Positions 40,694 to 54,202 of a DNA stretch of 64,000 bases are shown piece by piece. The notes under the pieces are model-generated. The model saw only the letters and a list, made by a program, of their open reading frames with translations. It searched no databases and was not told the DNA's origin. The DNA comes from Candidatus Obscuribacterales bacterium. Lineage in GTDB: Bacteria > Cyanobacteriota > Vampirovibrionia > Obscuribacterales > Obscuribacteraceae. Each line of letters begins with the position of its first letter. Position 1 is the stretch's first letter. Both the position numbers and the translations under genes were made by a program. The DNA lies in assembly GCA_965228855.1 (NCBI GenBank), contig CBDDIJ010000003.1:1824001-1888000 (forward strand), in the 5' to 3' direction.

Positions 40694-40735
40694 AAGAGAA
40701 GGCCCAGTATCGGAAACGAGCTGGGCACTCTCTTT
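40694..40735. terminator. probable terminator hairpin between convergent genes
   Basis: AAGAGAAGGCCCAG...CTGGGCACTCTCTTT. Confidence 0.55.
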
Positions 40736-42530
40736 AGAATTCCGGAGTCGAAAACGCATAAGCAGGCAGCGTAGTTAAGCGCGAGTCGTGAACGGCTTTT
40801 CCAAAGGTGAAGTTGTAGATCACTTCTTTTCCATCATCAAGAGCTAGATATTTGTTTATATCATCATCCACAAAGCAGCCTATCCCTGTGGCGTCATGAC
40901 CGAGGGCGCAAGCGGTCAAATAGAGCATTTGACCTATGTATCCGGCCTCATAATGCGCGAATCGGTAGCAGCGATCACCATACAGACGGTAGCCTTCCTG
41001 AAAATCTGCAATCATCGAAACAGAAAATGCGCCGTCACTAGCTATATCCTGGAAGCAGCTGGTTTCCTTCGCGCCCTCCCTCTGATCGCGCAAGAGGAGG
41101 GGAACGAGGTTGTTTTCAAACCGATCGAAGTAATAAAGACCTGGTGCGAGACCCTCCACTCGGTGAACGTAGAGATACAAATGAATAAGATGCTCGCGAG
41201 CAGATCGAGTCCAGTGACCATCGGTTACAACATCAACACCCTGAAAGTCAGCAGGGAAACCCATGGTAGAGGTACGCAGAATGTACGTCAGGTGCTTCAA
41301 CGGCATGCCGGTTTTACCATCCATGTCGACAGCAGACCGTCTCTTACGAATAGTTTGGTGAACCGACTTGTGCTGAGAGATCTCGCTTGCGTTCTCAAAA
41401 TCAAACTGCAGGTCTATTGCGTCGCCGGCAGCTTGGACGGGACCAGGTTTTGGTGCCGCCTTCGCAGCTCCCCCGGTAAAAAAATCTTTCTGTTTGCGAC
41501 GAACATCACGGCACGAATCTAAACCATATTTGGTCGCCTGGTAGACTCTCGAGATCTGAGGATAGTCGATAATTTGAGACGACAACTGATTCGGTTTTCC
41601 GATAAACGGGCCCAGAGCAGAAAGTGTCGTGGTCTCCGTTCCAGCCGGATCACCCGGTTGCGCCGCCCCCGCATGGAAAGAATCCAGCGAAAGCACAGAG
41701 TCGTGCGGAGCAAACAAATTAGCAGAACCAGGAGACAGCAGGACCAGAGCAAGCGGCTTCTCATCAGTCTGGTTTAAACCCAGATAGTCTGCAACCTCTT
41801 CGTCAGGGAAAATACCAACGATGCGCATCGACCAGCCCAATGCCGACGCCGACAGAGACAGCGAAGCAAGCGCATGTCCCATATCATGCTGACAGTAGCG
41901 GAATGCGCGCTCCCTGTATTTCCAGGCCTCTCGGAAAAATATCGAGGAGAGACATAGCACCACAGGAGGTGCATCGATCTGAATGCCGAGCCGCCGTAAA
42001 AGCGGAGTGACGGCATCACCGCGCACGCGCTGCTCGAGCTTATGCTCATTGACTTTATAGTGATACGCACCGGCGCCGAGACCGACGGAACCACGACTGA
42101 TGAGCACATGAGTATCAGTCGGATGAAGATTTCCTGATGACGCATTGACGCGAAGCGCCCATCGATTGTTTGTACCGACAACCTGTTTCCATGCACTTAT
42201 CGCCACGCCATAGAAGAGAAGGTTGGAGATGAACTTGAGAAGATCATCCGTTTCCGGCTTCTGTGCATCGCTGTCCCGTTGGCTAAAAACAATCCGAGCG
42301 TTTTCAACGTGTGAAACTGCCGCCTGAAAAAGATCCTGGCTGGAAACCGAGAACTCATGCGGCAGATCAATGAGCGGCGCGCCGTCGAAACGGAGAAACG
42401 GATCGGGCTGACTGTCCCAGGCAAGACGATGACCATACGAATACAGTTTCTGAATCGTGTGCTTGGTGGCGTGATGGTATTCGTAAAACGGGGATTGTTT
42501 CAAATCCGTTTCTGTGCGGCTGAATGGCAT
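40734..42530 (-). CDS. SagB/ThcOx-family (tandem nitroreductase) FMN-dependent oxidoreductase
   Basis: YHHATKH, LRVNASSGNLHPT, REAWKYRERAFRYCQHDMGH, IRKRRS, GIGCFVDD. Start placed at ATG 42530. Confidence 0.88.
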   Translation of the reverse strand: MPFSRTETDLKQSPFYEYHHATKHTIQKLYSYGHRLAWDSQPDPFLRFDGAPLIDLPHEFSVSSQDLFQAAVSHVENARIVFSQRDSDAQKPETDDLLKFISNLLFYGVAISAWKQVVGTNNRWALRVNASSGNLHPTDTHVLISRGSVGLGAGAYHYKVNEHKLEQRVRGDAVTPLLRRLGIQIDAPPVVLCLSSIFFREAWKYRERAFRYCQHDMGHALASLSLSASALGWSMRIVGIFPDEEVADYLGLNQTDEKPLALVLLSPGSANLFAPHDSVLSLDSFHAGAAQPGDPAGTETTTLSALGPFIGKPNQLSSQIIDYPQISRVYQATKYGLDSCRDVRRKQKDFFTGGAAKAAPKPGPVQAAGDAIDLQFDFENASEISQHKSVHQTIRKRRSAVDMDGKTGMPLKHLTYILRTSTMGFPADFQGVDVVTDGHWTRSAREHLIHLYLYVHRVEGLAPGLYYFDRFENNLVPLLLRDQREGAKETSCFQDIASDGAFSVSMIADFQEGYRLYGDRCYRFAHYEAGYIGQMLYLTACALGHDATGIGCFVDDDINKYLALDDGKEVIYNFTFGKAVHDSRLTTLPAYAFSTPEF

Positions 42531-42912
42531 GAGCAGAGCGTTTCCCTTGATGCAGTCGCCGGCGTTCGAACATCTCCGGCGAGCGACCGTTTTTCCAATC
42601 TTTATCCGACCAGTATATATACGATCGGAAATTAGATGCTGCTTCAGCGACGGACTAGCCGACGTTGCCAACAAAAATTCATAGATGCCGTCGCAAACAA
42701 GAGCCAGAGCCAGAAATCATTGCTCGAAACCTTTGTTGTCATGAGACGTTTGAGATTGGGTTGGGTTTTCAACAGACGAAACTCAGGAAAAACCCTATGG
42801 TCTCCTGAAAAACCGGCAAACTATGCTGAGGTATACCAGCCGCTGGTTTTTCCCGCGTGTAGCCCGAGAAAGATTAACCATCGCCAGCGGTTGCTTACAA
42901 AGACGTTAGAGG

Positions 42913-42942
42913 GAGGGAAGAGTGACCTTCCCTCGTCTTTTT
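42913..42942 (+). terminator. plus-strand terminator-like hairpin between two minus-strand genes
   Basis: GAGGGAAG-AGTGAC-CTTCCCTC then GTCTTTTT. Confidence 0.5.
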
Positions 42943-42992
42943 GGAGAGTTCTTCTCCGAGACGATCGAAAACGAAGGACGTTCCCTCCAGGT

Positions 42993-43787
42993 TCAGTCTT
43001 CGAGGAATGCCACCACTCTCGCCGGCGCCGCGCTGGCACCAACCAGTTTTATCGGGAAAAACGCGACTTTGAACCCGGAAGATGGAACGCTGTCCAGGTT
43101 GACTAACTGCTGAACAACGAAGAACTCCTTATCGCGATGAGCGAAGTGTGCATCCCAGATAAACTTCTTGTCTCTGGTTTTCTGATACTCAGCAATCATG
43201 ACGTGAAAGGGACGATCCCAACCAAGGGCGTCGGTGCCCCCGACCTTCGCTCCTTTATCAGCCAGCCACTGAGCCGATTCTCTTGTCATTCCCGGATAGT
43301 TGTAGCGCGCCGGATCGTTAATCGCGAACTTGTCGTGATCTGTTCTTATCAAGACAGCTTCACCGCCTGTGATATCACACCCGATCTTGTCCAGGGCCGA
43401 TTCCAGATCGGATACTGTAATTCCGCTGCCGGAGCCTCTTTTGTGTGTCATGTCCAGCACAATGGCAGGCAGATACAGATCGTGCAAATCGATTTCGTCA
43501 ACAGCTTTGGCCCTCTCTCCTCCGCAAGTGCTGCCGTAATGCAAGGGAGCATCCACGTGTGTTCCCATATGGCTCGACATTTTGAGATTGTCCTCGCCCC
43601 AGCCTTCGCCTTCTGGTAAGTCTTCTTTGCTGCAACCGAAAATCTCCATCATGATTTCGGCGCCTTTCTGATTGTCTATATATTCGATTTCTGGAGATAT
43701 TATTCTGAAGAGTGGCTTGATAATATCTGGAAAGCTAGCCTCATCCAGCGGCTTGAGAGCCCGCGTCAGGTCTACCAGTCGTGTCAT
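42993..43787 (-). CDS. cyclase family protein (kynurenine formamidase-like metal hydrolase)
   Basis: HxGTHxDAPxH motif (SHMGTHVDAPLHY), YPGMT, PIKLVGASAAPARVVA. Confidence 0.9.
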   Translation of the reverse strand: MTRLVDLTRALKPLDEASFPDIIKPLFRIISPEIEYIDNQKGAEIMMEIFGCSKEDLPEGEGWGEDNLKMSSHMGTHVDAPLHYGSTCGGERAKAVDEIDLHDLYLPAIVLDMTHKRGSGSGITVSDLESALDKIGCDITGGEAVLIRTDHDKFAINDPARYNYPGMTRESAQWLADKGAKVGGTDALGWDRPFHVMIAEYQKTRDKKFIWDAHFAHRDKEFFVVQQLVNLDSVPSSGFKVAFFPIKLVGASAAPARVVAFLED

Positions 43788-43879
43788 ATGTGGCTTCTCC
43801 GGTTTTATATGCTATGGACAATTTAGCCAATTCGGGTCATTTTAGATAGAGAACAGGTCTCTGTGATTACTGGAGTGTC

Positions 43880-44425
43880 ATGTTTCCAAAGTTCTTCACA
43901 TTGGAGGAAGCGAGGGCAGCATTGCCCGTCATCAAGGAATTTCTCCTTGCTGCCAATAGCGAGCTGGAAATACTCGCCGAGGACCTTATAGAAGCTAACG
44001 AGCGATTCGACCGCATTGAGAAGCGCCTGACCCACGCAAACATCATCAGCGTGGCGACCAGGGATAGCACGCTTGACTGGTCGAAAGCCGACGAGCTTTT
44101 CGAACGCGAAGTCAAACGCAGCGGTGCCTTGCATCATACTCCACACGAGGAAGATGAAGAGCGCTTCTCAGAAGCGGCTCATTCGCTTGCCGATTTGCAA
44201 AACAATTATTTGATCAGGTTGAACTACTGGCTCGACAAGATCAACGAGCAAGGCGTTATTCTGCGCGATTTGAGAACCGGATTGCTCGATTTTCCAGCCA
44301 GAGAAGGCTCGCTCGAATACTTTCTTTGCTGGAGACTTAGTGACTCGGATATAACTACCTGGCACCCGGTCAATGAAGGCTTTGCCGGACGGAAGCCTCT
44401 GTCAGTCCTTATCGAATACACTTAA
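43880..44425 (+). CDS. DUF2203 domain protein
   Basis: FTLEEARAALP, LRDLRTGLLDFP, LCWRLSD, WHPVNEGFAGRKPL. Confidence 0.88.
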   Translation: MFPKFFTLEEARAALPVIKEFLLAANSELEILAEDLIEANERFDRIEKRLTHANIISVATRDSTLDWSKADELFEREVKRSGALHHTPHEEDEERFSEAAHSLADLQNNYLIRLNYWLDKINEQGVILRDLRTGLLDFPAREGSLEYFLCWRLSDSDITTWHPVNEGFAGRKPLSVLIEYT

Positions 44426-44426
44426 A

Positions 44427-45173
44427 CTAACGAGAGTCCGGCACCGGCGCTTCCTCAATCGGTTTTTCGATTGATATCGCATATGGTGCACTACGAACAT
44501 TGTTCGTAGTTACAACGACTTCAGCTTCGCCGTTGCCGATGTGATCGGGAACTTTGACGGTGAGGGAATTGCGAGACGCATACAGCAATTGGGCGTCCCT
44601 TCCGCCGATGGAAACGTGGTTCTCGGACGGGTCGAGACTGAAACCTTTTCCTGAAAGGGTAAGGCGTCCACCTGCACGCGCAGTGGTGGGATTAATACCG
44701 GCGAATTCCGGAGTCAGTGGACCTTGCAGCACCCAACTCATGACCGCACCTTTGGGAGCTGTACCCTCAAGAATCAATGTGTTTATGCCCTGGAATACTT
44801 TGCCTGACAAATCGACATTCACCGTATGGCGCTCAATATAACTTTCGTCAAAAACCAGGTCTGCAGTAGGTTCCTCAGCGCCTTTGAGATTGGAGACGTT
44901 CATGTCACCGCCGATTAAAACTCGAATCCAGTTGAAACCGGCAGTTCCGCCGACACCGTTGTGGATAATCAGCGTCAGCGGTTTCATCACATCGGCTGCA
45001 TCAAGTTTGAACTGGCCAAAAAACCGCTGCATATGTTTCGAATTCGCGACAAAAGGACCTGCTGTTGCCACTTCTTCTACCGCGGTAGTGGAGACCTGAG
45101 CGAAACCAGGCGCTGGTGCAATGCCTAAGGCAAACGCCAAGATGAAAGCAATCAGTCGACGTTTCATTGTCAT
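44427..45173 (-). CDS. secreted IPT/TIG domain protein
   Basis: Signal peptide; C-terminal INPTTARAGGRLTLSGKGF...LTVKVP. Confidence 0.75.
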   Translation of the reverse strand: MTMKRRLIAFILAFALGIAPAPGFAQVSTTAVEEVATAGPFVANSKHMQRFFGQFKLDAADVMKPLTLIIHNGVGGTAGFNWIRVLIGGDMNVSNLKGAEEPTADLVFDESYIERHTVNVDLSGKVFQGINTLILEGTAPKGAVMSWVLQGPLTPEFAGINPTTARAGGRLTLSGKGFSLDPSENHVSIGGRDAQLLYASRNSLTVKVPDHIGNGEAEVVVTTNNVRSAPYAISIEKPIEEAPVPDSR

Positions 45174-45211: not shown

Positions 45212-45334
45212 TTAGAACTCAGCGACGAGTCCGAACATCGCGATCAAAATGATAAAGCTGAAGTACAGGAGGAAGAACCACACCCAGCGGTTGATCAATT
45301 GAGTTTCGGTTAGTTTTACGTCTTTGCCGGCCAT
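45212..45334 (-). CDS. small single-TM protein (40 aa), distal gene of the respiratory operon
   Basis: Hand-translated MAGKDVKLTETQLINRWVWFFLLYFSFIILIAMFGLVAEF; purine-rich RBS; 42 nt after the mvhD-like stop. Confidence 0.7.
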   Translation of the reverse strand: MAGKDVKLTETQLINRWVWFFLLYFSFIILIAMFGLVAEF

Positions 45335-45376: not shown

Positions 45377-46018
45377 CTAGTCCTTCTTCTCTTCGGTCTT
45401 AGATTCTTCGGCTTTCTTTTCTTCTGCGGGCTTGTCACCGGAGGTGGTGGCAGCATCAACCTTAGCTTCAGCAGCCTTATCGGCATCTGCCGGGGTTGTT
45501 TCAGCAGTAGGTTTCGACTCTATAGCAGCCTTCGCATCTTCTTTCTTATCGTCACTCGGAGTAGCAGCTGGTGCAGCCGGCTTAGCGGCGGGCGCAGGTT
45601 TGGGTGCGGCTGCCGGAGCAGCGGCGAGCGGTTCCAAACCTTTGATGTAGGCGACGAACTCTTTTGCTTCAGCTTCAAACTTCCCGCGTTGCAGTCTGGA
45701 TAGCCAGAGCGCAAGTACACGTCGTCTTTCGACCGTCTTTTTCAAGCCGGGAGTACGCTCGCCTAAAAGTCTCTCGCGAATCATGCGATTGCCTTCGCGG
45801 TAATAGCAGTCGCCGATCTGGCAGCCGGTGACGATGACTCCGGAAGCGCCGGCTTTAAAGGCACCTTCGATCATCAGCGGTTGTACCATTCCGGAGCAAG
45901 GCAGTTTTACGACTTTCAGACCGGAAACGGTCGTGCAGTTACCTGCTTTGTCGCAGATGCCATCAACATCGGCGGCACGCTCGCATAAAAGTGTTATTAC
46001 TGTCTTCTGATCGGTCAT
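45377..46018 (-). CDS. mvhD: MvhD/FlpD-like [2Fe-2S] protein (hydrogenase delta subunit family) with Ala/Pro/Lys/Glu-rich tail
   Basis: LLCERAAD, VKLPCSGMV, AFKAGASGVIVTGCQIGDCYYREGN supply the four MvhD-type Cys. Confidence 0.85.
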   Translation of the reverse strand: MTDQKTVITLLCERAADVDGICDKAGNCTTVSGLKVVKLPCSGMVQPLMIEGAFKAGASGVIVTGCQIGDCYYREGNRMIRERLLGERTPGLKKTVERRRVLALWLSRLQRGKFEAEAKEFVAYIKGLEPLAAAPAAAPKPAPAAKPAAPAATPSDDKKEDAKAAIESKPTAETTPADADKAAEAKVDAATTSGDKPAEEKKAEESKTEEKKD

Positions 46019-46068
46019 TTCGGTTTACCTTCTGAACTCCGAATCGTGGTCACTGTATATGGTGCCGA

Positions 46069-47217
46069 TTAGGCAGATTGGCTGTTGGCCAATTGTTTGA
46101 TTTTCTCGTTAACATCCGAATCCAGGAGATTCGGCAAATCGATCGCATCGAATGCGCAAGCGCCGACGCAGACGCCGCATCCAGAGCAACGGTAAGGTTT
46201 GACCGTCGCCAACAATTTGAAACGAGAGCCGGCTGGAGCAGGCACCATCTCGATAGCCTGGAACGGGCAATCTTTGAAGCAGAACGAGCAACCTGTACAT
46301 TTCGAATCAACGACTTCCGCCGATTCCACCGGTTTCTTATTAGTGAACGGATACGGAATCAAACAGAGTGCAGCCGTGATCAAGATCATCGAGATCCAGA
46401 AGCCTGTCGTGCCAAGTGCACCGAGAACGGCATAGGGCAACAGGAAGAAAACGTCGATATCCATGCTGGTCGGTTGCGAATTCAAATCTGCAATCTTGGT
46501 TGCGGTGATCGGGAAGAAGTAGACAACCGCAAAGATGATGGTCATCAAAATGTAGTTGAGCGCAGGAGGCGGTGTGATGACCGGTCTCGACATACGCACG
46601 TAGTGGATCCACAGAGCGAAAAGTAGTGAGAACGAAAGTCCGATGTGGATAAACAGGAAGTTCGACAGGGTCAGGTTGGAAATTGTCCGACCGTTTAGGA
46701 ACCAGTTTCTAAGCGGTTCTCCAATAACCGGAACGACTTCGAGAGCCGATACGGTCATACGAGTAAGAAGGAGCGAGCGCTCGTCCCAGATCAGGTAATA
46801 ACCGGTTTGACCGATGAAAAGAACCATCAACAGCAGGACGATACCTGATTCCCACTGAACCCAGCGGTACTGGCGATATCTATCGGTAAACCACACACGC
46901 ACCATGTGAATCAAAATTGCAACGACCATCGCATCGCCGGCGTATCTGTGAACCGCGCGGATCACCGCGCCGAACGGAATATCGTTGGTGATGTATGCGA
47001 CCGAGGTATACGCATTAACGAGGTTCTTCGAGAAGTACGCGTTATCGATCGTCGGCACATAGTAGGCAAAAAGAAGCAGCCCACTTAAGAACAGGATATA
47101 CATGATGAACTGCGGCAAGGCGCCGTGGTAGTACAACGGGTTGTACTTGCTCGTCGATATCTTGTTGAGTAAATCTTCTGTTACCAGAAAAATTTGGGTC
47201 CAGATATTCGTTTTCAT
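46069..47217 (-). CDS. cytochrome b (#2) fused to a C-terminal 2x[4Fe-4S] ferredoxin domain
   Basis: Four His ligands in IRAVHRYAGDAMVVAILIH and FIHIGLSFSLLFALWIH; CTGCSFCFKDCP and CSGCGVCVGAC. Confidence 0.9.
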   Translation of the reverse strand: MKTNIWTQIFLVTEDLLNKISTSKYNPLYYHGALPQFIMYILFLSGLLLFAYYVPTIDNAYFSKNLVNAYTSVAYITNDIPFGAVIRAVHRYAGDAMVVAILIHMVRVWFTDRYRQYRWVQWESGIVLLLMVLFIGQTGYYLIWDERSLLLTRMTVSALEVVPVIGEPLRNWFLNGRTISNLTLSNFLFIHIGLSFSLLFALWIHYVRMSRPVITPPPALNYILMTIIFAVVYFFPITATKIADLNSQPTSMDIDVFFLLPYAVLGALGTTGFWISMILITAALCLIPYPFTNKKPVESAEVVDSKCTGCSFCFKDCPFQAIEMVPAPAGSRFKLLATVKPYRCSGCGVCVGACAFDAIDLPNLLDSDVNEKIKQLANSQSA

Positions 47218-47268: not shown

Positions 47269-47607
47269 CTACTTCTTCTCGGGCAACGTCATCTTCTCTT
47301 CGTCATCAGCGCTGCCGATAGCCGCAATCGCAATCGCAGCACCTAAAAGAGCCAAGCCGATAGCCAGGGAGTAAACATATTCGCCTTTTTTACCCTCTGC
47401 CTTTTGCGACTCCAGATGCGTTTTGTGTTTATCGGCCGAGCCGCCATAAATCTCGCCCAGGGCCTTTCCAACCGGCTCGAGGTGCAGGAGTTTAAAAGTG
47501 TGAGGCAAATTATCGACATTCATGTCCAACTCTGCCCACGGCATCATTGCGCTTGCCCAGAGACAAAGCCCAATCGCCGCCGCCATTAATCCAACTCGAA
47601 TAGCCAC
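47269..47607 (-). CDS. hypothetical 2-TM protein in the respiratory operon
   Basis: GTG start 3 nt after the upstream stop; two hydrophobic segments. Confidence 0.7.
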   Translation of the reverse strand: MAIRVGLMAAAIGLCLWASAMMPWAELDMNVDNLPHTFKLLHLEPVGKALGEIYGGSADKHKTHLESQKAEGKKGEYVYSLAIGLALLGAAIAIAAIGSADDEEKMTLPEKK

Positions 47608-47610
47608 TTC

Positions 47611-47991
47611 TCAGCTCTCTCCCTTTTCAGTTACCACGACCTTGTTGCCGCTTTTGGGCTGCAGGGCAAGGTTGATTCTCTCAAACAACTGGATACGTTT
47701 TTTCAAAGTGCCTTTTGCTTTTTCTTCGAAGTAGACCCAGTAGGCATGCACTCCGAGAAACAACAAGGTGAAGACGGTGCCTGCGACCAGAGTGACGGCG
47801 TTGGCCAAACTCAAGTCCTTACCGATCTCGCGCCAACCTTCGAAAAAAAGAGAAAGCGCGTAAGCAGCACAGCTGAAGTTGATCAGCTTGTAGATGAACT
47901 TCACCTTTTGATGCGGGACCGAAGCATGCTCGGCAGTGCCACCATGTTCGGTGCCACCGGCTGATGCCTGCATCTTGTCCTTATTCGTCAT
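47611..47991 (-). CDS. hypothetical 2-TM protein in the respiratory operon
   Basis: Start placed at ATG 47991 (MTNKDK) to avoid overlap with cytochrome b; two hydrophobic segments. Confidence 0.7.
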   Translation of the reverse strand: MTNKDKMQASAGGTEHGGTAEHASVPHQKVKFIYKLINFSCAAYALSLFFEGWREIGKDLSLANAVTLVAGTVFTLLFLGVHAYWVYFEEKAKGTLKKRIQLFERINLALQPKSGNKVVVTEKGES

Positions 47992-48014
47992 CGAAAGTTG
48001 AAGTACTCCCATGT

Positions 48015-49805
48015 CTATTTCTTGGCGTCCACTTGAGCAGCGGATTTGCTGCGAGCCACGAAGAAGGTCACAATCGCTGCAAGAGTGGTCACGAAGCCAC
48101 CAATCATCCACCACCAATCCACTTCAGGTACGCTCATCGGGTAGACCTCGAACGGTTTCGGATTGAGATTGGACAGGTTCATACGATCGTGGAAGTTGAC
48201 GTAATCCCAGGCCCATTTGTTGGCGATCATGAAATCGACCGCGCCTTTGTAGACAGGGTTTTTCTCGTCGAAGGTCGGAATGAGCTGGAACAACCAGTCG
48301 ATACCGGTTGTGGTGTTCTTGAGTTCTTCCAACTTCGCGACGGCAACATCACCGCCTTGAATTTTCTGAATCCACGAATTCACGGCAACCGTGAAGTCGG
48401 TGTTGTAAGGCATTTCAGTTCCTTTCGGAACCAGCGTGCGAATTGTGGTCTCCAGTTCGTCTGCCTTTCCACCCCAGAACGGTCTGAAGAGTAGATAGGT
48501 AAAGCCCTGCGTCACCGGCGACATAAACATTTCGGTTCTTGCCATGTAGTAGTACAGCACAGCGAGAATCGATTGCAGTCCGCCGAGAACTGCCATGACG
48601 ATTGAAGGACGAACTCCTTTTGCCCATTCCTTCGCATCTTTAGATTGCCAGATCATGACGATTTGCCATAGCAAGCCGACATCGATAGCAAGATATGAAA
48701 GTGAACGCCAGAACGGAGGATCGTAGTGAATGTTCGCTACGTTGATAACGATCAGGTATGAGAAGACAATCCACGAGACTCCACCCATGATGGTCATCAT
48801 CAGGATGAACGGGCGCTTCATGATGTTCTTTTCCGGTCCGGCGATCCAGGTGTCGAGGAACGGCAAGAGAATAACCGTCACCGGAATGACCATAGTGATT
48901 TCGGTAGCCACGACCGGCTCCAGGTATTTGTACATCTGATACAAGCCCAGGAAGTACCAGTCAGAAAGAATCGGCAACGGCGTGACGTCCGGGTCGGAAC
49001 GTCGACCTTGAGCAGCCGGGAGAATTACAGCAGTAATCACGAGCATCATGATGACGGTAAAGCGCTTGATCCAGTTGAGCGGCATGCGCACGTAGTTGTT
49101 GTTGTAGAAATAGATTTCTACAAGAATCAAAGGGATCAAGGAGAAAGCCAGGTGAAGAGAGAAGAAGCGCGTAATCGTTTCTTGAGTGATTGCACCACCT
49201 GCGCCAAGAAGAACCTCGGCGGTGTTCCAACCCAAGTGCAACGACTTGACGAGAGGCTCGTAGTAATCGCCCATTACAGGGAACTGGTCCATGTAAGTCG
49301 GGAATGTGGCAAACACTTTTGTAGCCCAAAAAGCGCGCTGGTTCCAAATCAACAAATATCCGGTCAGACCGGAATACATTGACAGGAGAAGCATCACAAG
49401 ACCGATTGCGATGTTGAATTCTTTGCTCGGTTTATAGTCAGCAAGAATGAACATACGGAAAACTCGCATGGTAGCGGCGATAATCATCGCGTCCGCCCCA
49501 TACTTATGAACCCCTCGGACTATATTTCCGAAAGGCACGTGCCATTGAATTGCATAGATCGAGTCGTACGCTGCCGCTTTGGTAGGCACGTACCACATGA
49601 TGAGCATGAGTCCGGAAGCCATCGTAACGAACCAGACCAGATAGAAAATCGGTCCCAGCGCGTAGAACGGATTGGTCTTCGCTTCCAGCTGATGGTGCTC
49701 ATCGAATATGTCGATGTTTTTGAAGCGCGTTCCTAAGTAGTCCCAGAGGAACTGAACGCCTCCCCACACCTTATTTCCAGGTTTGTTTGCAGTGCTACTC
49801 GTCAT
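48015..49805 (-). CDS. petB: cytochrome b (#1), unsplit b6+subunit IV-like, with long C-terminal extension
   Basis: VRGVHKYG, LTGYLLIWNQRAFWA, TITRFFSLH, ILSDWYFL, PFLD; follows the Rieske gene. Confidence 0.88.
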   Translation of the reverse strand: MTSSTANKPGNKVWGGVQFLWDYLGTRFKNIDIFDEHHQLEAKTNPFYALGPIFYLVWFVTMASGLMLIMWYVPTKAAAYDSIYAIQWHVPFGNIVRGVHKYGADAMIIAATMRVFRMFILADYKPSKEFNIAIGLVMLLLSMYSGLTGYLLIWNQRAFWATKVFATFPTYMDQFPVMGDYYEPLVKSLHLGWNTAEVLLGAGGAITQETITRFFSLHLAFSLIPLILVEIYFYNNNYVRMPLNWIKRFTVIMMLVITAVILPAAQGRRSDPDVTPLPILSDWYFLGLYQMYKYLEPVVATEITMVIPVTVILLPFLDTWIAGPEKNIMKRPFILMMTIMGGVSWIVFSYLIVINVANIHYDPPFWRSLSYLAIDVGLLWQIVMIWQSKDAKEWAKGVRPSIVMAVLGGLQSILAVLYYYMARTEMFMSPVTQGFTYLLFRPFWGGKADELETTIRTLVPKGTEMPYNTDFTVAVNSWIQKIQGGDVAVAKLEELKNTTTGIDWLFQLIPTFDEKNPVYKGAVDFMIANKWAWDYVNFHDRMNLSNLNPKPFEVYPMSVPEVDWWWMIGGFVTTLAAIVTFFVARSKSAAQVDAKK

Positions 49806-50380
49806 GCGATCGAACCGGCCTCCAACGATGTTATTTCGATCTTTCCGCCATCCTTCTTGAGCTGGAATTTACGCGGCGGACGCGGCGCCGGACCGGAGAT
49901 AACCTTGCCGCCATGAGCAATGTCATAAACGGAGAGGTGGCACGGGCAGGCGAATACTGGACCAGCGGGTTTGTAGTTATAGCCTTTGGCGCACTCTTCA
50001 GGCTCTTTGACGAAGTTGAAGATGCAACCAAGGTGCGGACAGATGCGGCTGTACGCTTCTACGTCACCATTCGGCAATTTAACGATGAAACCAGGGATGG
50101 TACGAACTTCTTTGAGTTCAGGGTTGTACTCCAGGTATTTCTGGTTGAAAGTAAACGGAATGCAAGTCCAGGGCTCCGGGAAATCTGCATCCGTGAATGT
50201 TGGAATTGGTGGCTCTGCGAGCGGTTGGTCGGATTTACCGAGGATGTCCAACGGACCCAGAGTCGGGCGCAGGAAGCGCAAGAACGGCGAGACCAGCAGT
50301 CCGAAAGTCATTGCCAGCGGAACAGCTGCCACCGTCTTTAGTATCGTTCTTCTCTTAACACCATCACTCATGGCAGTCAC
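49802..50380 (-). CDS. petC: Rieske [2Fe-2S] subunit of a Rieske/cytochrome b complex
   Basis: Tat-like KRRTILK plus TM anchor; CPHLGC and CPCHLSVY boxes; GPAPRP. Confidence 0.93.
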   Translation of the reverse strand: MTAMSDGVKRRTILKTVAAVPLAMTFGLLVSPFLRFLRPTLGPLDILGKSDQPLAEPPIPTFTDADFPEPWTCIPFTFNQKYLEYNPELKEVRTIPGFIVKLPNGDVEAYSRICPHLGCIFNFVKEPEECAKGYNYKPAGPVFACPCHLSVYDIAHGGKVISGPAPRPPRKFQLKKDGGKIEITSLEAGSIA

Positions 50381-50384
50381 CTTC

Positions 50385-51377
50385 TTATTGAACAGATTCT
50401 TTTCTGTCGAGTTTTTCAGCTATGCGCGCCTTGTCAGCGGCCGCCTTATCTTTGATATTAGTTGAAATCGCGCTTGGCGACGCGGAATTGTTGCGCGATG
50501 CTTTCTTGCCTTCAAGAGCTGGCGCGCTGTCTTCGTGGAAGTTTCGAACGTACTGCGTCAGCTTCCAGATATAATCCGCGTCAAACGTGACTTTGTTTCC
50601 TCTGTCTTGTTTGCCGAGGAAGTTGGGCATACCCTCCCAGCGGATACCGTTGGCGATGTGGTCCCAGATTTGTTCGTCGGTTCTGTCGTAGAAACGATCG
50701 AACTGAGTGAAGTTGGCGGGAGCCGGCTGTAGAACCAGACCTTTGTTAAGCTGCCCGTCTCCTGCGCCTCGGCTTCCGTGACACACGGCGCAATTCGCAC
50801 CGAACACGGCTTTCATTGCCAATCGCTCTTCGTCAGAAAGTAACGGAACAGCAAGACTTCTCGTGTAGAAAATCAGGTCCCATCTCTGGCGCTTGCTCAG
50901 CTTATCGAGAAACGCTTCGTGCTTCATGACACGGGGCGCAGCCTCTTTGGTCTCCGTTTCGCTTCCTTCAGCAGTTCCAAGAGCGCTGGTCACAGGCGTA
51001 ATCTCTTCCTTGCCTTCGCCGAAAGAAATCAACTTATATTGATCGACCGGCTTGCGTTGTCTCATACGCTCGACATTGGTAAGGTCGATATCGCATTGAC
51101 CGGCTACGCCTTTGCCGTCGGCACCGTGACACGATGCGCAATTTTGCTGCTGCCAGTAGACACTTCCGTCATAGACAGAAGGTACTGCGTCCGGGAAAAG
51201 AACGACGTCCTTACCGGCAGTAGCATCTCTGTTAGCCAGTTCCGACTCCTTCTGTCCGACACTCACCTGAGATTGGCAAGCTGTCAGGGACACGGCAATC
51301 GGGATAGTAAGGAGCGCAAATCCAAGCAGATTGAATTTGCGAGTTAGTTTTTTCAATCGAGTGAGTTGAGGGTGCAT
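50385..51377 (-). CDS. dihaem cytochrome c lipoprotein
   Basis: Lipobox LTAC; haem motifs CASCH and CAVCH. Confidence 0.88.
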   Translation of the reverse strand: MHPQLTRLKKLTRKFNLLGFALLTIPIAVSLTACQSQVSVGQKESELANRDATAGKDVVLFPDAVPSVYDGSVYWQQQNCASCHGADGKGVAGQCDIDLTNVERMRQRKPVDQYKLISFGEGKEEITPVTSALGTAEGSETETKEAAPRVMKHEAFLDKLSKRQRWDLIFYTRSLAVPLLSDEERLAMKAVFGANCAVCHGSRGAGDGQLNKGLVLQPAPANFTQFDRFYDRTDEQIWDHIANGIRWEGMPNFLGKQDRGNKVTFDADYIWKLTQYVRNFHEDSAPALEGKKASRNNSASPSAISTNIKDKAAADKARIAEKLDRKESVQ

Positions 51378-51416: not shown

Positions 51417-51587
51417 TCAATAATTGAAGAACGGAATCCAGGAGACCGCTGCATACATGAAAATAAGCACGAACGCGACGACGAGAAACGGAGGAGGCGG
51501 ACCTTCTCCGATTCGGTATTCCGACACTACTTCGTAGTGCTCTTCGGCTGGTTCTTCTTTAGCTTTTGGATTGCTTGGGTTAGCCAT
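51417..51587 (-). CDS. small single-TM protein (56 aa)
   Basis: Hand-translated MANPSNPKAKEEPAEEHYEVVSEYRIGEGPPPPFLVVAFVLIFMYAAVSWIPFFNY; GAGGTGA ribosome-binding site. Confidence 0.75.
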   Translation of the reverse strand: MANPSNPKAKEEPAEEHYEVVSEYRIGEGPPPPFLVVAFVLIFMYAAVSWIPFFNY

Positions 51588-51606: not shown

Positions 51607-51858
51607 CTAGCTCTGCGACTTGAGGGCCGCGGCGGCTCTGGCGCGCTCGACCAGCGCTTTCGCCCGTTCCGATGCCGACGTGTCTTCGCCGTCATCGAGC
51701 ATGTCGAATTTGGAACCTTCCAGATCCTCGAACTCGCCATTACCGAATGCCCACCACATCGCGATGATGCCGACTACGAAGAATACGGCGCATACACCGA
51801 ATGCTACGTACAATCCCGCATCAAGCGGAGCCTGGTTAAGAATACAGTTGGGACACAT
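51607..51858 (-). CDS. ccoS: cbb3-type oxidase maturation protein CcoS-like
   Basis: TM segment followed by WWAFGNGEFEDLE...MLDD (CcoS pattern); start overlaps the ccoO stop. Confidence 0.8.
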   Translation of the reverse strand: MCPNCILNQAPLDAGLYVAFGVCAVFFVVGIIAMWWAFGNGEFEDLEGSKFDMLDDGEDTSASERAKALVERARAAAALKSQS

Positions 51859-52811
51859 TAGTGCTCATCGCCTCCTGAATGTGGCTCGTACTGCTGCTTC
51901 GTGAGCTTAGGCAAACGAATAGGTTCGAGTTTGTCGAGTTGATCGAGTTTGTCGATTGTTTGCTCGACATCTTGAGGAAGAGTCTTGAGGTACGCGACAA
52001 GGTACCAACGTTCTTCTTCCGTCAAAATCAGGTTGAAGCGCGGCATTCTTGTACCGACGACGCCTTCGGACACGCGATAGAACCACATTTCATCGTCGTA
52101 CTGTTTATAGAACGGTCTGGTGAAGTTTGCAGGTTTCTTCGTCAGAGAAATCGAGTTCGGTCCGTTGCCCTTCGCTTCCAATCCATGACAGGCAGCGCAG
52201 TTTTGCGTGTAGATCCCGCGTCCGGCGTTAGCCGAAGCATCGGAATTTGTGTCTACGTGTTTTCTCTCGTGCAGTGCGAATCCAACCGGCGTGCTGACCT
52301 GATATTCATCAGGCGCTGCAACGTAATGATTGACTGTACGCTTGTTTCCGAGAGTCTGGATATAGCAGACCAGGTCGTTCATATCTCTATCATTCAGGTA
52401 GCTGAAGCTCGGCATGATCGAACCGGGCTTAACAGCGCGAGGTTGAATCAAGTGAGCTTTCTGCCATTCCGAGGGAAATTTGTTTCCTTCGTTAGTCAGG
52501 TCGGGACCGGTTCTAGCGGTACCAAGTTGGTGAGGTGTTTCATACACGTAATCACCAGCCTTAACGAGCGGTCCGTATTCACGGTCCTGCAGACGCGTGA
52601 ACTGGGTGTGGCAGTAGAAGCAACCTTCTCTTACGTAGATTCTTCTTCCGCGAACCGGGTCGCCAACTTTGGCTTCAGCTTTGTAATCGTTTCTTGTGTC
52701 AGACGGGTCTGGTCTGAACAACACCATCGGCATCAACACTGTTGAGAAGATGATGATGAAGAACGTTGAGATGATACCAATGGCACCGAGTCGGTAGCCG
52801 TAGCCATTCAT
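51858..52811 (-). CDS. ccoO: cbb3-type oxidase subunit II (CcoO) fused to a second cytochrome c domain
   Basis: GRRIYVREGCFYCHTQ, GTARTGPDL, PGSIMPSF; second haem motif CAACH with MPRF. Confidence 0.92.
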   Translation of the reverse strand: MNGYGYRLGAIGIISTFFIIIFSTVLMPMVLFRPDPSDTRNDYKAEAKVGDPVRGRRIYVREGCFYCHTQFTRLQDREYGPLVKAGDYVYETPHQLGTARTGPDLTNEGNKFPSEWQKAHLIQPRAVKPGSIMPSFSYLNDRDMNDLVCYIQTLGNKRTVNHYVAAPDEYQVSTPVGFALHERKHVDTNSDASANAGRGIYTQNCAACHGLEAKGNGPNSISLTKKPANFTRPFYKQYDDEMWFYRVSEGVVGTRMPRFNLILTEEERWYLVAYLKTLPQDVEQTIDKLDQLDKLEPIRLPKLTKQQYEPHSGGDEH

Positions 52812-54202
52812 TAGACTTTGACCTCCCGTGTTTTGGCCGTGACTTCGACCGCTTTAGGCGTATAAATAGTGCGGAAGGCGTTGTAGCAAAACAGCGCTTG
52901 TCCCGTCACGATCATGATGCCGCTTATGGCGCGGACGAACCAGTATGGGTACAACGTGTTGGACCACTGGTCGACCGGGAAGCCCATAGCCCAACCTGCA
53001 GACTGAACCAGTCCGGCAACGGTGAGTGAGAAGTACATGATCAAGAAGCCGATGAATTTGAGCCAGTAGTGACCGCGAACCAGTCCCATGCTGTGCCATT
53101 CTCTGCCGGTCAATCTGGGCAGCATGTAATAAACAGCTGAAGTCAGAATGAAGGAGAAAGCACCGAGCAAGGCAGCGTGCGCGTGACCGACGACCCACTG
53201 AGTGAAGTGGATATACCAGTTGATCCAGCGCGTCGCCTGGAACGGTCCCTGCAAGCAAGTCATCAAATAGAAGAGTGCAGAGGTCATCGCAAATCTTAGC
53301 GGTAGATCATCAGCCCCCTGTCCCCACTTACCCTTCATGGTCATAAAGAAGTTGGTGAGAACTGTGAATACTGGAACCAACAAGAAGATCGACGAGATGA
53401 CCGCAATCGCCTTCAACCATTCCGGAACCGGTGATTGAAGAATATGGTGTGTTCCTGTCGGAGCATAAAACAGCGCAATCCCCCAGAATCCGAGCATTGA
53501 CAGTCCGTGGCTGTACAACGGAGCCTGAGTGTAGCGAGGTATCAAGTAGTACATGATGCCGACGCCTACCGTCGTGAACCACATACCCAGGATGTTGTGG
53601 CCGTAGAACCAACCGATGATGGCGTCGTTCAAACCAGGCAAGAACACGAAAGTTCTTTGACCGATGATGTAAACGAGGGGAAACCAGAACAACGAACCGA
53701 GGAAGTACCAGAGGCTGACGTAGAGTTTTTTAACTCTGCGGTGAGCCACTGTCATCAGGACGTTGAATGTGACCGTACACAGCGCGACTGCAGCCATGCA
53801 ATCGAGGATCGCGCCGAGTTCGGCATACTCACGACCTTCCGTGTTGCCGTTCAGGAGGGTGCAGAATGCACCAATCATCAACAGGTTCCAAGCCCACATA
53901 GTGAAGTTGCCGAGGCGCTCCGAAAACAGTTTGTTTTTGCAGAGGGTCGGAACCATGTGGAACATTGAAGCGATGTAACCCATCGAAAGCCAACCGATGG
54001 TCACAGCATTTACGTGCCACATTCTTAAGTGTGGCATTGAGAACTGAGGAATGTTATGGACCAAGTCCGGGTTATAGAACTCCATGGAGGCGAAAAGACC
54101 CGCCCCCATTCCGAACAGTGACCACCACATCGCCGAAACGAGAAAGTTACGGCTGGCGCTCCCTTCCTCGTTGCTCAGGAATTTGTCTAGCAAACCGCTC
54201 AC
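52811..54202 (-). CDS. ccoN: C-family (cbb3-type) haem-copper oxygen reductase subunit I
   Basis: LRMWHVN, GREYAE, WFYGHN, FYAPTGTHH (Tyr positioned as in the C family), VVGHAH. GTG start after AGGAG. Confidence 0.93.
   Translation of the reverse strand: MSGLLDKFLSNEEGSASRNFLVSAMWWSLFGMGAGLFASMEFYNPDLVHNIPQFSMPHLRMWHVNAVTIGWLSMGYIASMFHMVPTLCKNKLFSERLGNFTMWAWNLLMIGAFCTLLNGNTEGREYAELGAILDCMAAVALCTVTFNVLMTVAHRRVKKLYVSLWYFLGSLFWFPLVYIIGQRTFVFLPGLNDAIIGWFYGHNILGMWFTTVGVGIMYYLIPRYTQAPLYSHGLSMLGFWGIALFYAPTGTHHILQSPVPEWLKAIAVISSIFLLVPVFTVLTNFFMTMKGKWGQGADDLPLRFAMTSALFYLMTCLQGPFQATRWINWYIHFTQWVVGHAHAALLGAFSFILTSAVYYMLPRLTGREWHSMGLVRGHYWLKFIGFLIMYFSLTVAGLVQSAGWAMGFPVDQWSNTLYPYWFVRAISGIMIVTGQALFCYNAFRTIYTPKAVEVTAKTREVKV

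Follow-up and report, generated by a model that had tools for sequence, protein, structure and literature searches.

A fused complex III/IV operon of Melainabacteria is said to have been described by Soo in Science in 2017. Kao & Hunte 2014 (PMC4122944) gave the name PDWF-FeS to a fusion of cytochrome b, a 4Fe-4S domain and MvhD, and the passages on this clade place Magnetospirillum magneticum AMB-1, Turneriella parva and Alicycliphilus denitrificans among its members; as described there, the protein is one chain, its cluster has no Rieske gene and its function is untested. Matheus Carnevali 2019 (PMC6349859) reported a C-family oxidase beside petB-/petC-like genes in Obscuribacter and relatives; the operon was termed cytochrome b6f-like, MvhD has 0 occurrences in the main text, and the passages on the operon mention neither a ferredoxin fusion nor lost haem ligands. 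The locus analysed here lies in a stretch of 64,000 nucleotides (the window) from Candidatus Obscuribacterales bacterium (assembly GCA_965228855.1, contig CBDDIJ010000003.1, positions 1,824,001-1,888,000 of the forward strand), where a second cytochrome b with a C-terminal Fe-S arm (cytochrome b #2) and an MvhD protein stand at the end of the complex III/cbb3 operon of Vampirovibrionia (Melainabacteria). Close homologues bear the names Obscuribacterales or Melainabacteria.

The window and PDWF-FeS share the domain order, found here as adjacent genes, and a sister form with ferredoxin and flavin oxidoreductase; the likeness to an xDWF-type motif (IDVF in the window) is less clear. Unlike the single chain of that clade, the window has three pieces, together with a Rieske protein, a one-haem cytochrome b (cytochrome b #1) and a cbb3 oxidase, and the absence of Rieske from the cluster does not hold for the window type, 39/40 loci of which have a Rieske gene. 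Together with a membrane peptide of 40 amino acids (aa) that follows them, cytochrome b #2 and MvhD likely make up a three-piece form of a widespread cytochrome b-ferredoxin-MvhD fusion. It is probable that the two cytochromes b belong to a heterodimeric Rieske/cytochrome b complex in which the Fe-S arm would be a cytoplasmic electron port; the narrower proposal, that ferredoxin feeds electrons through the heterodimer into quinone cycling, is tentative and is given somewhat less than an even chance.

Of the class genomes, 88 have an MvhD match; conservation was assessed in 40 loci drawn from them, picked by long contigs and family spread. Cytochrome b #2 matches Pfam Cytochrome_B at residues 20-209 (E 2e-26) and a Fer4 dicluster domain at residues 306-358. 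Its haem ligands His 90/104/191/205, equivalent to the four haem His of canonical bc1 cytochrome b, were kept in 40/40 Vampirovibrionia loci, as were all eight Cys of the two CxxCxxCxxxC motifs (C307-317 and C344-354). An earlier note, made from the DNA alone, had pointed to these two motifs at the end of a cytochrome b followed by an MvhD-like gene, and the Pfam matches and invariant ligands (40/40) bear this out. At the Qo position the protein carries a degenerate IDVF, with D in 39/40, W in 24/40 and P in 0/40 homologues. The AlphaFold model (predicted local distance difference test, pLDDT, 89.6; predicted template modelling score, pTM, 0.87) gave a Foldseek match of ~300 columns to bc1 cytochrome b, and in an alignment with solved cytochromes b its IDVF coincides with PEWY and its last helix with helix F. 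Because the chain stops after helix F, with six helices, its C-terminus is expected on the n-side (cytoplasm); K/R density is 1.7 per 10 residues past the last helix versus 0.15-0.6 in p-side loops. The Fe-S domain is thus predicted to face the cytoplasm, where the earlier note had placed it; a periplasmic ferredoxin domain was considered and rejected on the helix F alignment and the K/R bias. Cytochrome b #2 and MvhD match positions 571-644 and 672-773, in that order, of the HdrA2 model NF040770, the arm being related to the C-terminal ferredoxin domain of HdrA.

The MvhD open reading frame (ORF; 45377-46018) has a Pfam FlpD match at residues 8-128 (E 3e-19; 69.6 bits versus a cut-off of 22.3 for PF02662), and among solved structures it matches MvhD chains best (5odc_D, E 2e-15). 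The predicted [2Fe-2S] ligands Cys 12/41/66/71 were kept in 40/40 homologues, and C41/66/71 match positions of 5odc_D. The lack of an export signal noticed in the earlier note was upheld: the protein has no hydrophobic segment, and RR is missing from the first 30 residues of 40/40 homologues. The two additional Cys and the tail that it had stressed are present in the sequence and are not shared by the family: C22 is Cys in 0/40 and C28 in 2/40 homologues, and the tail of 83 aa, rich in A/K/P/E/D, is missing from most homologues and is considered local because 37/40 are only 124-157 aa long. Roles for the extra Cys as cluster ligands and for the tail as a functional element were rejected on this non-conservation. 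The fused homologues support MvhD as the predicted partner of the Fe-S arm of cytochrome b #2.

A single chain with the order cytochrome b, ferredoxin, MvhD was found in 21/21 full-length longer homologues, and the same fusion in 146/150 of the best 50%-cluster representatives. In the fused homologue P0122, residues 279-501 match HdrA2 560-770 as one stretch (E 9e-37). In its model (pLDDT 79.1) the helix that follows MvhD can be superposed on canonical cytochrome b as far as residue 343 (7o3c_C, for instance, with Z 21.0, root-mean-square deviation 3.8, 263 aligned). From this model we read the fused family as a cassette of HdrA C-terminus and MvhD placed in the cytoplasmic F-G loop of cytochrome b. 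In 38/40 related loci mvhD is followed by a 40-aa membrane peptide, which probably represents helix G of cytochrome b #2 as a separate chain; its profile did not match the fused family, so the assignment is made from position. Neither this peptide nor three periplasmic-domain proteins have a Pfam family. The cytoplasmic Fe-S wire that the earlier note had proposed, on a two-haem cytochrome b with an MvhD partner, is supported (chain end after helix F, fused in 21/21); a link to hydrogenase or Hdr is not supported.

Cytochrome b #1 keeps the SDWY motif of the Qo site in 39/39 homologues and retains the bL ligands H100/H218, and both ligand positions of haem bH are replaced (by R/K and Y) in 39/39; the more distant fragments P0411-P0431 show identical ligand loss. 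Without bH ligands an outlet is therefore needed for the second quinol electron. The C-terminal extension of cytochrome b #1 varies, and its total length ranges from 441 to 658 aa across loci. Neither the ligand loss nor the 40-aa peptide had been noticed in the earlier note. The accompanying Rieske proteins have an S-Y signature in 28/39 and S-F in 11/39 loci, and a potential of 260 mV or more is predicted; following the rule set out by Kao & Hunte 2014 (PMC4122944), these signatures correspond to a high and a mid-plus Rieske potential, respectively.

Pairing of the two cytochromes b was modelled with cytochrome b #2, residues 22-425 of cytochrome b #1 and 3 haems. The complex scored 0.70 versus 0.00 for the best of 3 controls; the mark used for this score is attained by 116/157 solved and 2/215 mismatched pairs, counts that are only roughly valid for this case. 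The runs share at least 92% of contacts, with partner pLDDT of at least 76 and an interface made by helices A and D. Cytochromes b #1 and b #2 are thus predicted to form a dimer, on a model score that may stem from likeness to (memory of) solved bc1 homodimers. In a small FastTree tree (few outgroups, L099 excluded), cytochrome b #1 is sister to the whole b #2 family with a support of 0.99, and the Vampirovibrionia b #2 proteins are sister to all fused forms tested, proteins of Magnetococcales and Spirochaetes among them. Among 201 genomes of the phylum searched at E 1e-90, cytochrome b #1 was found in only 3, all Vampirovibrionia, and in five non-cyanobacterial genomes there were only weak N-terminal matches.

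The operon forms a one-strand series in the window: ccoN, ccoO, ccoS, a small peptide, a di-haem cytochrome c, Rieske and cytochrome b #1, followed by 2 small membrane ORFs, cytochrome b #2, mvhD and the 40-aa membrane peptide. Cytochrome b #2 and mvhD are present in 40/40 fetched loci and cytochrome b #1 and Rieske in 39/40, with constant gene order among the loci listed. The genes, in order of coordinates, are:

45212..45334, minus strand: 40-aa membrane peptide with one helix, probably helix G split off from cytochrome b #2
45377..46018, minus strand: MvhD/FlpD-type [2Fe-2S] protein, 213 aa, C12/C41/C66/C71, with a lineage-specific low-complexity tail
46069..47217, minus strand: cytochrome b #2, 382 aa, helices A-F and a C-terminal 2[4Fe-4S] domain
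47269..47607, minus strand: small two-helix membrane ORF, no family match, weakly conserved
47611..48012, minus strand: small membrane ORF, no family match, start uncertain
48015..49805, minus strand: cytochrome b #1, SDWY Qo motif, bL ligands H100/H218, R/K114 and Y232 at the bH positions
49802..50380, minus strand: Rieske protein, CPCHLSVY (S-Y, predicted high potential)
50385..51377, minus strand: di-haem cytochrome c with a lipoprotein-like N-terminus
51417..51587, minus strand: 56-aa membrane peptide, kept across operon relatives
51607..51858, minus strand: CcoS/FixS maturation protein
51858..52811, minus strand: CcoO with a second cytochrome c domain
52811..54202, minus strand: CcoN, C-family (cbb3) oxygen reductase subunit I

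A promoter and terminator scan gave no surplus versus shuffled sequence. On the 3' side of the operon, the window contains a two-domain nitroreductase-family protein (40734-42674, minus strand), a putative cyclase (42993-43787, minus strand), a DUF2203 protein (43880-44425, plus strand) and an IPT/TIG-domain protein (44427-45173, minus strand); these four genes (40734-45173) adjoin the operon in close relatives only. Elsewhere, one family only (L056:2290-4561, L057, L058) has a small ferredoxin and an AprA-like flavoprotein (NF005331 over cut-off) convergent with the operon and 3' of it, and in 2 genomes of one genus (G141:C20, G052:C2) nuoD is found on the opposite strand, ~4 kb downstream from mvhD.

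The class survey covered 151 Vampirovibrionia genomes, in which kin are not independent and metagenome-assembled genomes (MAGs) are incomplete. MvhD-like proteins were found in 88, ccoN in 87 and cytochrome b #2 in 89 of them; the module and ccoN occur together in 86, MvhD alone in 2, ccoN alone in 1 and neither in 62, a co-occurrence that largely reflects one operon. Two oxidase-free families have the module in 0/32 (f6) and 0/9 (f7) genomes. Co-occurrence with hydrogenase genes, by which the earlier note had proposed to check its wire, was not borne out: the module tracks the oxidase (86/88) rather than NiFe hydrogenase (large-subunit PF00374 match over cut-off in 38/88). The alpha subunit of 2-oxoacid:ferredoxin oxidoreductase is present in 151/151 class genomes, and the NuoF-type NADH (nicotinamide adenine dinucleotide, reduced) module in only 6/88 module genomes. 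NDH-2, traced by its C-domain, was discarded as a complementary marker, being patchy and uninformative (60/151 genomes, 46/88 module genomes); in family f5 it is present in 14/17 genomes and the module in only 2.

The host genome is 95% complete. Its only PF00374 matches, at C3:667608-668792, lie outside the window, in a NiFe hydrogenase cluster (C3:667587-671723) read as group-3b-like. Five HdrA queries against the host matched only cytochrome b #2 and MvhD themselves, and a search for HdrBC in the host returned a single CCG-domain protein, a 450-aa ORF read as GlcF-like; the statement of the earlier note that the window has no hydrogenase or Hdr genes was thus correct. For menaquinone synthesis, both PF02621 futalosine genes are present in the host and MenB was not found over cut-off; its nuo cluster has no NuoF. 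Two further cytochrome b operons accompany that of the window. At C3:757396-761686 (plus strand) a cytochrome b gene is followed by a CydA-like gene (PF01654, E 2e-7), a separate full cydA being located at C5:338764, and C3:1071544-1079401 (minus strand) contains A-family-like oxidase subunits, a haem O synthase-like gene, Rieske and a 649-aa cytochrome b. The host also has at C2:2452195-2459667 (plus strand) a membrane complex read as Hyf/Ehr-like, whose 505-aa large subunit has no NiFe motif or PF00374 match.

In the mechanism that we propose, electrons from the cytoplasm would enter through cytochrome b #2, MvhD and the peptide into a complex III that cycles menaquinone and is linked to the cbb3 oxidase. 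The SDWY site of cytochrome b #1 would oxidise menaquinol, one electron passing through Rieske, cytochrome c, CcoO and CcoN to O2 and the other from bL of cytochrome b #1 to bL and then bH of cytochrome b #2. Reduced ferredoxin, from the 2-oxoacid:ferredoxin oxidoreductases of the host, would deliver electrons through the [2Fe-2S] cluster of MvhD and the two [4Fe-4S] clusters to the same bH, and quinone would be reduced on the n-side, at a site of non-canonical type in which His31 may take part. This residue, adjacent to the His201-equivalent position, is present in 40/40 Rieske-coupled copies versus 0/80 and 2/150 other family members. The net result would be oxidation of ferredoxin by low O2 with a built-in Q-cycle, corresponding to the external donor 'd' of Mitchell; section 10 of Dibrova 2017 discusses this donor and input from ferredoxin to haem cn. 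The second electron for quinone reduction is assigned to ferredoxin because cytochrome b #2 lacks both haem cn and the Qi residues that usually bind semiquinone. Input is favoured over output because the step from ferredoxin to haem b is downhill and fits a ferredoxin-centred metabolism and a sister form with an NADH-reductase arm.

Several observations weigh against ferredoxin input. The alignment shows that the canonical Qi residues (His201/Asp228) are not present in cytochrome b #2: the His201-equivalent position is S/T/A/Q in 40/40, the D-E linker is ~19 residues shorter and without a conserved Asp, and the haem cn Cys (CxGG motif of b6) is Tyr, in a YHGA motif kept in 40/40. NuoD is present in 86/88 module genomes and, as it occurs there without NuoF, these hosts already possess a route from ferredoxin to quinone. 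Beyond Vampirovibrionia, members of the family occur without Rieske or cytochrome b #1 and therefore work there without them. A predicted high-potential Rieske in a menaquinone host implies surplus driving force, which fits output better. In Hdr complexes, according to the relevant passage of PMC12350162, electrons flow from the HdrA [4Fe-4S] clusters to MvhD and on to the acceptor, an order that, taken outward from bH, corresponds to output.

The same heterodimer might accordingly run the other way, which we consider rather unlikely: it would bifurcate quinol, with the low-potential electron passing from bL of cytochrome b #1 to bL and bH of cytochrome b #2, then through the two [4Fe-4S] clusters and MvhD to a cytoplasmic acceptor, either NAD(P)+ via a flavoprotein or ferredoxin that re-enters by a NuoEFG-less complex I, the cost being paid by O2 reduction. 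The missing canonical Qi site and haem cn, the high-potential Rieske signature beside menaquinone, the Hdr flow order and the presence of NuoD as a sink all favour this direction, and a quinol:NAD+ activity is proposed for relatives in an eNOR operon in a preprint (10.64898/2026.01.22.701106). The heterotrophic hosts, however, already produce reduced ferredoxin. The energetics also stand in the way: subtracting +260 to +300 mV from 2 x (-60 to -80 mV) leaves about -380 to -460 mV at the p-side and, after a membrane potential of ~150 mV, about -230 to -310 mV, which is short of ferredoxin (~-400 mV) and marginal for NAD(P)H; unusually low haem potentials would be needed. Moreover, S-F/S-Y Rieske proteins also accompany ordinary APWY and GPWY cytochromes b, as stated in the section of Kao & Hunte 2014 (PMC4122944) on these signatures. 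In its widest form, a doubtful one in our view, the proposal would describe an asymmetric three-haem complex III bifurcating menaquinol between O2 and an HdrA/MvhD-derived wire, with a quinone site and not flavin yielding low-potential electrons for NAD(P)+ or ferredoxin, which would be recycled via the NuoEFG-less complex I, and with the wired family doing related work for eNOR/B-family oxidases.

A role independent of cytochrome b #1 was considered from the wider family, in which cytochrome b #2, its ferredoxin arm and MvhD would be a transmembrane reductase for haem-copper enzymes, reducing copper or haem when these enzymes are assembled or reactivated, as CcoG does, or supplying them directly with electrons. 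In a GTDB scan with the fused alignment at least 563 of 599 candidates were confirmed; the scan estimates the family at ~1,400 GTDB stretches, and the 1,122 clusters obtained at E 1e-30 may include other cytochromes b. In the 80 loci from which neighbours were counted, mostly of Proteobacteria, haem-copper subunit I was found in 61, SCO in 69, subunit II in 54, hemerythrin in 52, cyoE in 38 and nirS in 19, and Rieske in just 1, an Obscuribacterales locus. A HSSQQ-type motif was present in 49/70 subunit-I ORFs of these loci, in agreement with the Gln-for-Tyr replacement given as a mark of eNOR in PMC8756737; eNOR has been characterised in PMC11214002. A metagenome scan seeded with a basal clade gave 80 loci, of which the 48 of at least 6 kb were counted and 32 shorter ones excluded: 34 have a B-family-type subunit I, 39 SCO, 21 cyoE and only 4 Rieske and cytochrome b #1. 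Two paralogues of the fused gene occur in some loci (L131, L147). Three loci (L101, L109, L126) carry an extra sister protein, nested inside the same clade as the fused forms, whose arm is a BenC/MmoC-type [2Fe-2S]-FAD (flavin adenine dinucleotide)-NAD reductase, a module that in characterised enzymes conducts electrons from NADH outward. On plasmids the fused form was found in one eNOR-type operon, without cytochrome b #1, and a search of viral contigs gave no match. No tested function was found in the literature for this large eNOR/B-family-linked parent family.

Such a reductase role would account for fused genes that adjoin haem-copper subunit I, SCO and cyoE and near-always stand without Rieske in both sets of loci. 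CcoG acts as a cupric reductase, and ccoG (TIGR02745, E 1e-30) was found in 0/151 class genomes, though 87 have ccoN; the likeness of the module to CcoG is considered as a functional analogy only. The fused forms also close with an all-beta domain after the last helix, to which 12/150 add a CxxCH. Against this stand the missing bH of cytochrome b #1, which would be left without an outlet, the predicted dimer, the sister-group relation of cytochrome b #1 and the b #2 family in the small tree with few outgroups (0.99), and the Vampirovibrionia form itself, which has only the 40-aa peptide and no beta domain after MvhD; we regard the role as improbable. A methanogen-type adaptor function for Hdr, hydrogenase or formate dehydrogenase, or a role confined to regulation or sensing, is very unlikely despite the homology to MvhD and the HdrA C-terminus and the one hydrogenase cluster elsewhere in the host, since 50/88 module genomes have no PF00374 match over cut-off (MAGs being incomplete), the host has no HdrA and the oxidase-free families f6 and f7 have no module; hydrogenase or Hdr as a general partner was rejected on the 38/88 count and the absence of HdrA.

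Neither the three-piece form nor the heterodimer was found in the literature covered, and key subscription papers and supplements beyond it may describe tandem cytochromes b; the portions of PMC9325076 and PMC4451040 covered contain nothing on the module. The fusion architecture is already in print and the heterodimer context apparently is not. A cytochrome b serving as anchor for cytoplasmic oxidoreductases is treated in the sections of Dibrova 2017 on this subject. If the heterodimer is true, with an Fe-S arm where Qi would be, transfer from bL to bL would be obligatory, and the complex would allow Mitchell's external-donor Q-cycle, or else bifurcation from quinone to low-potential carriers, to be tested in a natural system. 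It would also be relevant to how O2 respiration arose, alongside a ferredoxin-centred metabolism, in the closest relatives of cyanobacteria that do not photosynthesise.

Compared with the HdrABC-MvhAGD, Fdh-Hdr and Elp-Hdr complexes (PDB 5odc, 7bkb, 8rvu), the window shares the HdrA C-terminal ferredoxin and MvhD, whereas it has no FAD domain, HdrBC or MvhAG, and its anchor is a cytochrome b. In the eNOR operon of the Ferrigenium preprint (10.64898/2026.01.22.701106), cytochrome b-FeS proteins are encoded in a haem-copper operon and were detected in a proteome, a family context like that of the 49/70 subunit-I ORFs with the HSSQQ-type motif; by their description there, and not by alignment, they differ from the window in their NO reductase partner, the lack of Rieske and a proposed, untested quinol:NAD+ activity. 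With bc1 and b6f complexes the window shares the four-helix di-haem core, helices A-F, the predicted helix A/D dimer interface and the Rieske subunit. All solved bc complexes that our searches turned up are homodimers in which each monomer carries two b haems; for the window, in contrast, the prediction is a heterodimer that combines three b haems and a single Qo with three n-side Fe-S clusters and lacks a canonical Qi and the haem cn Cys.

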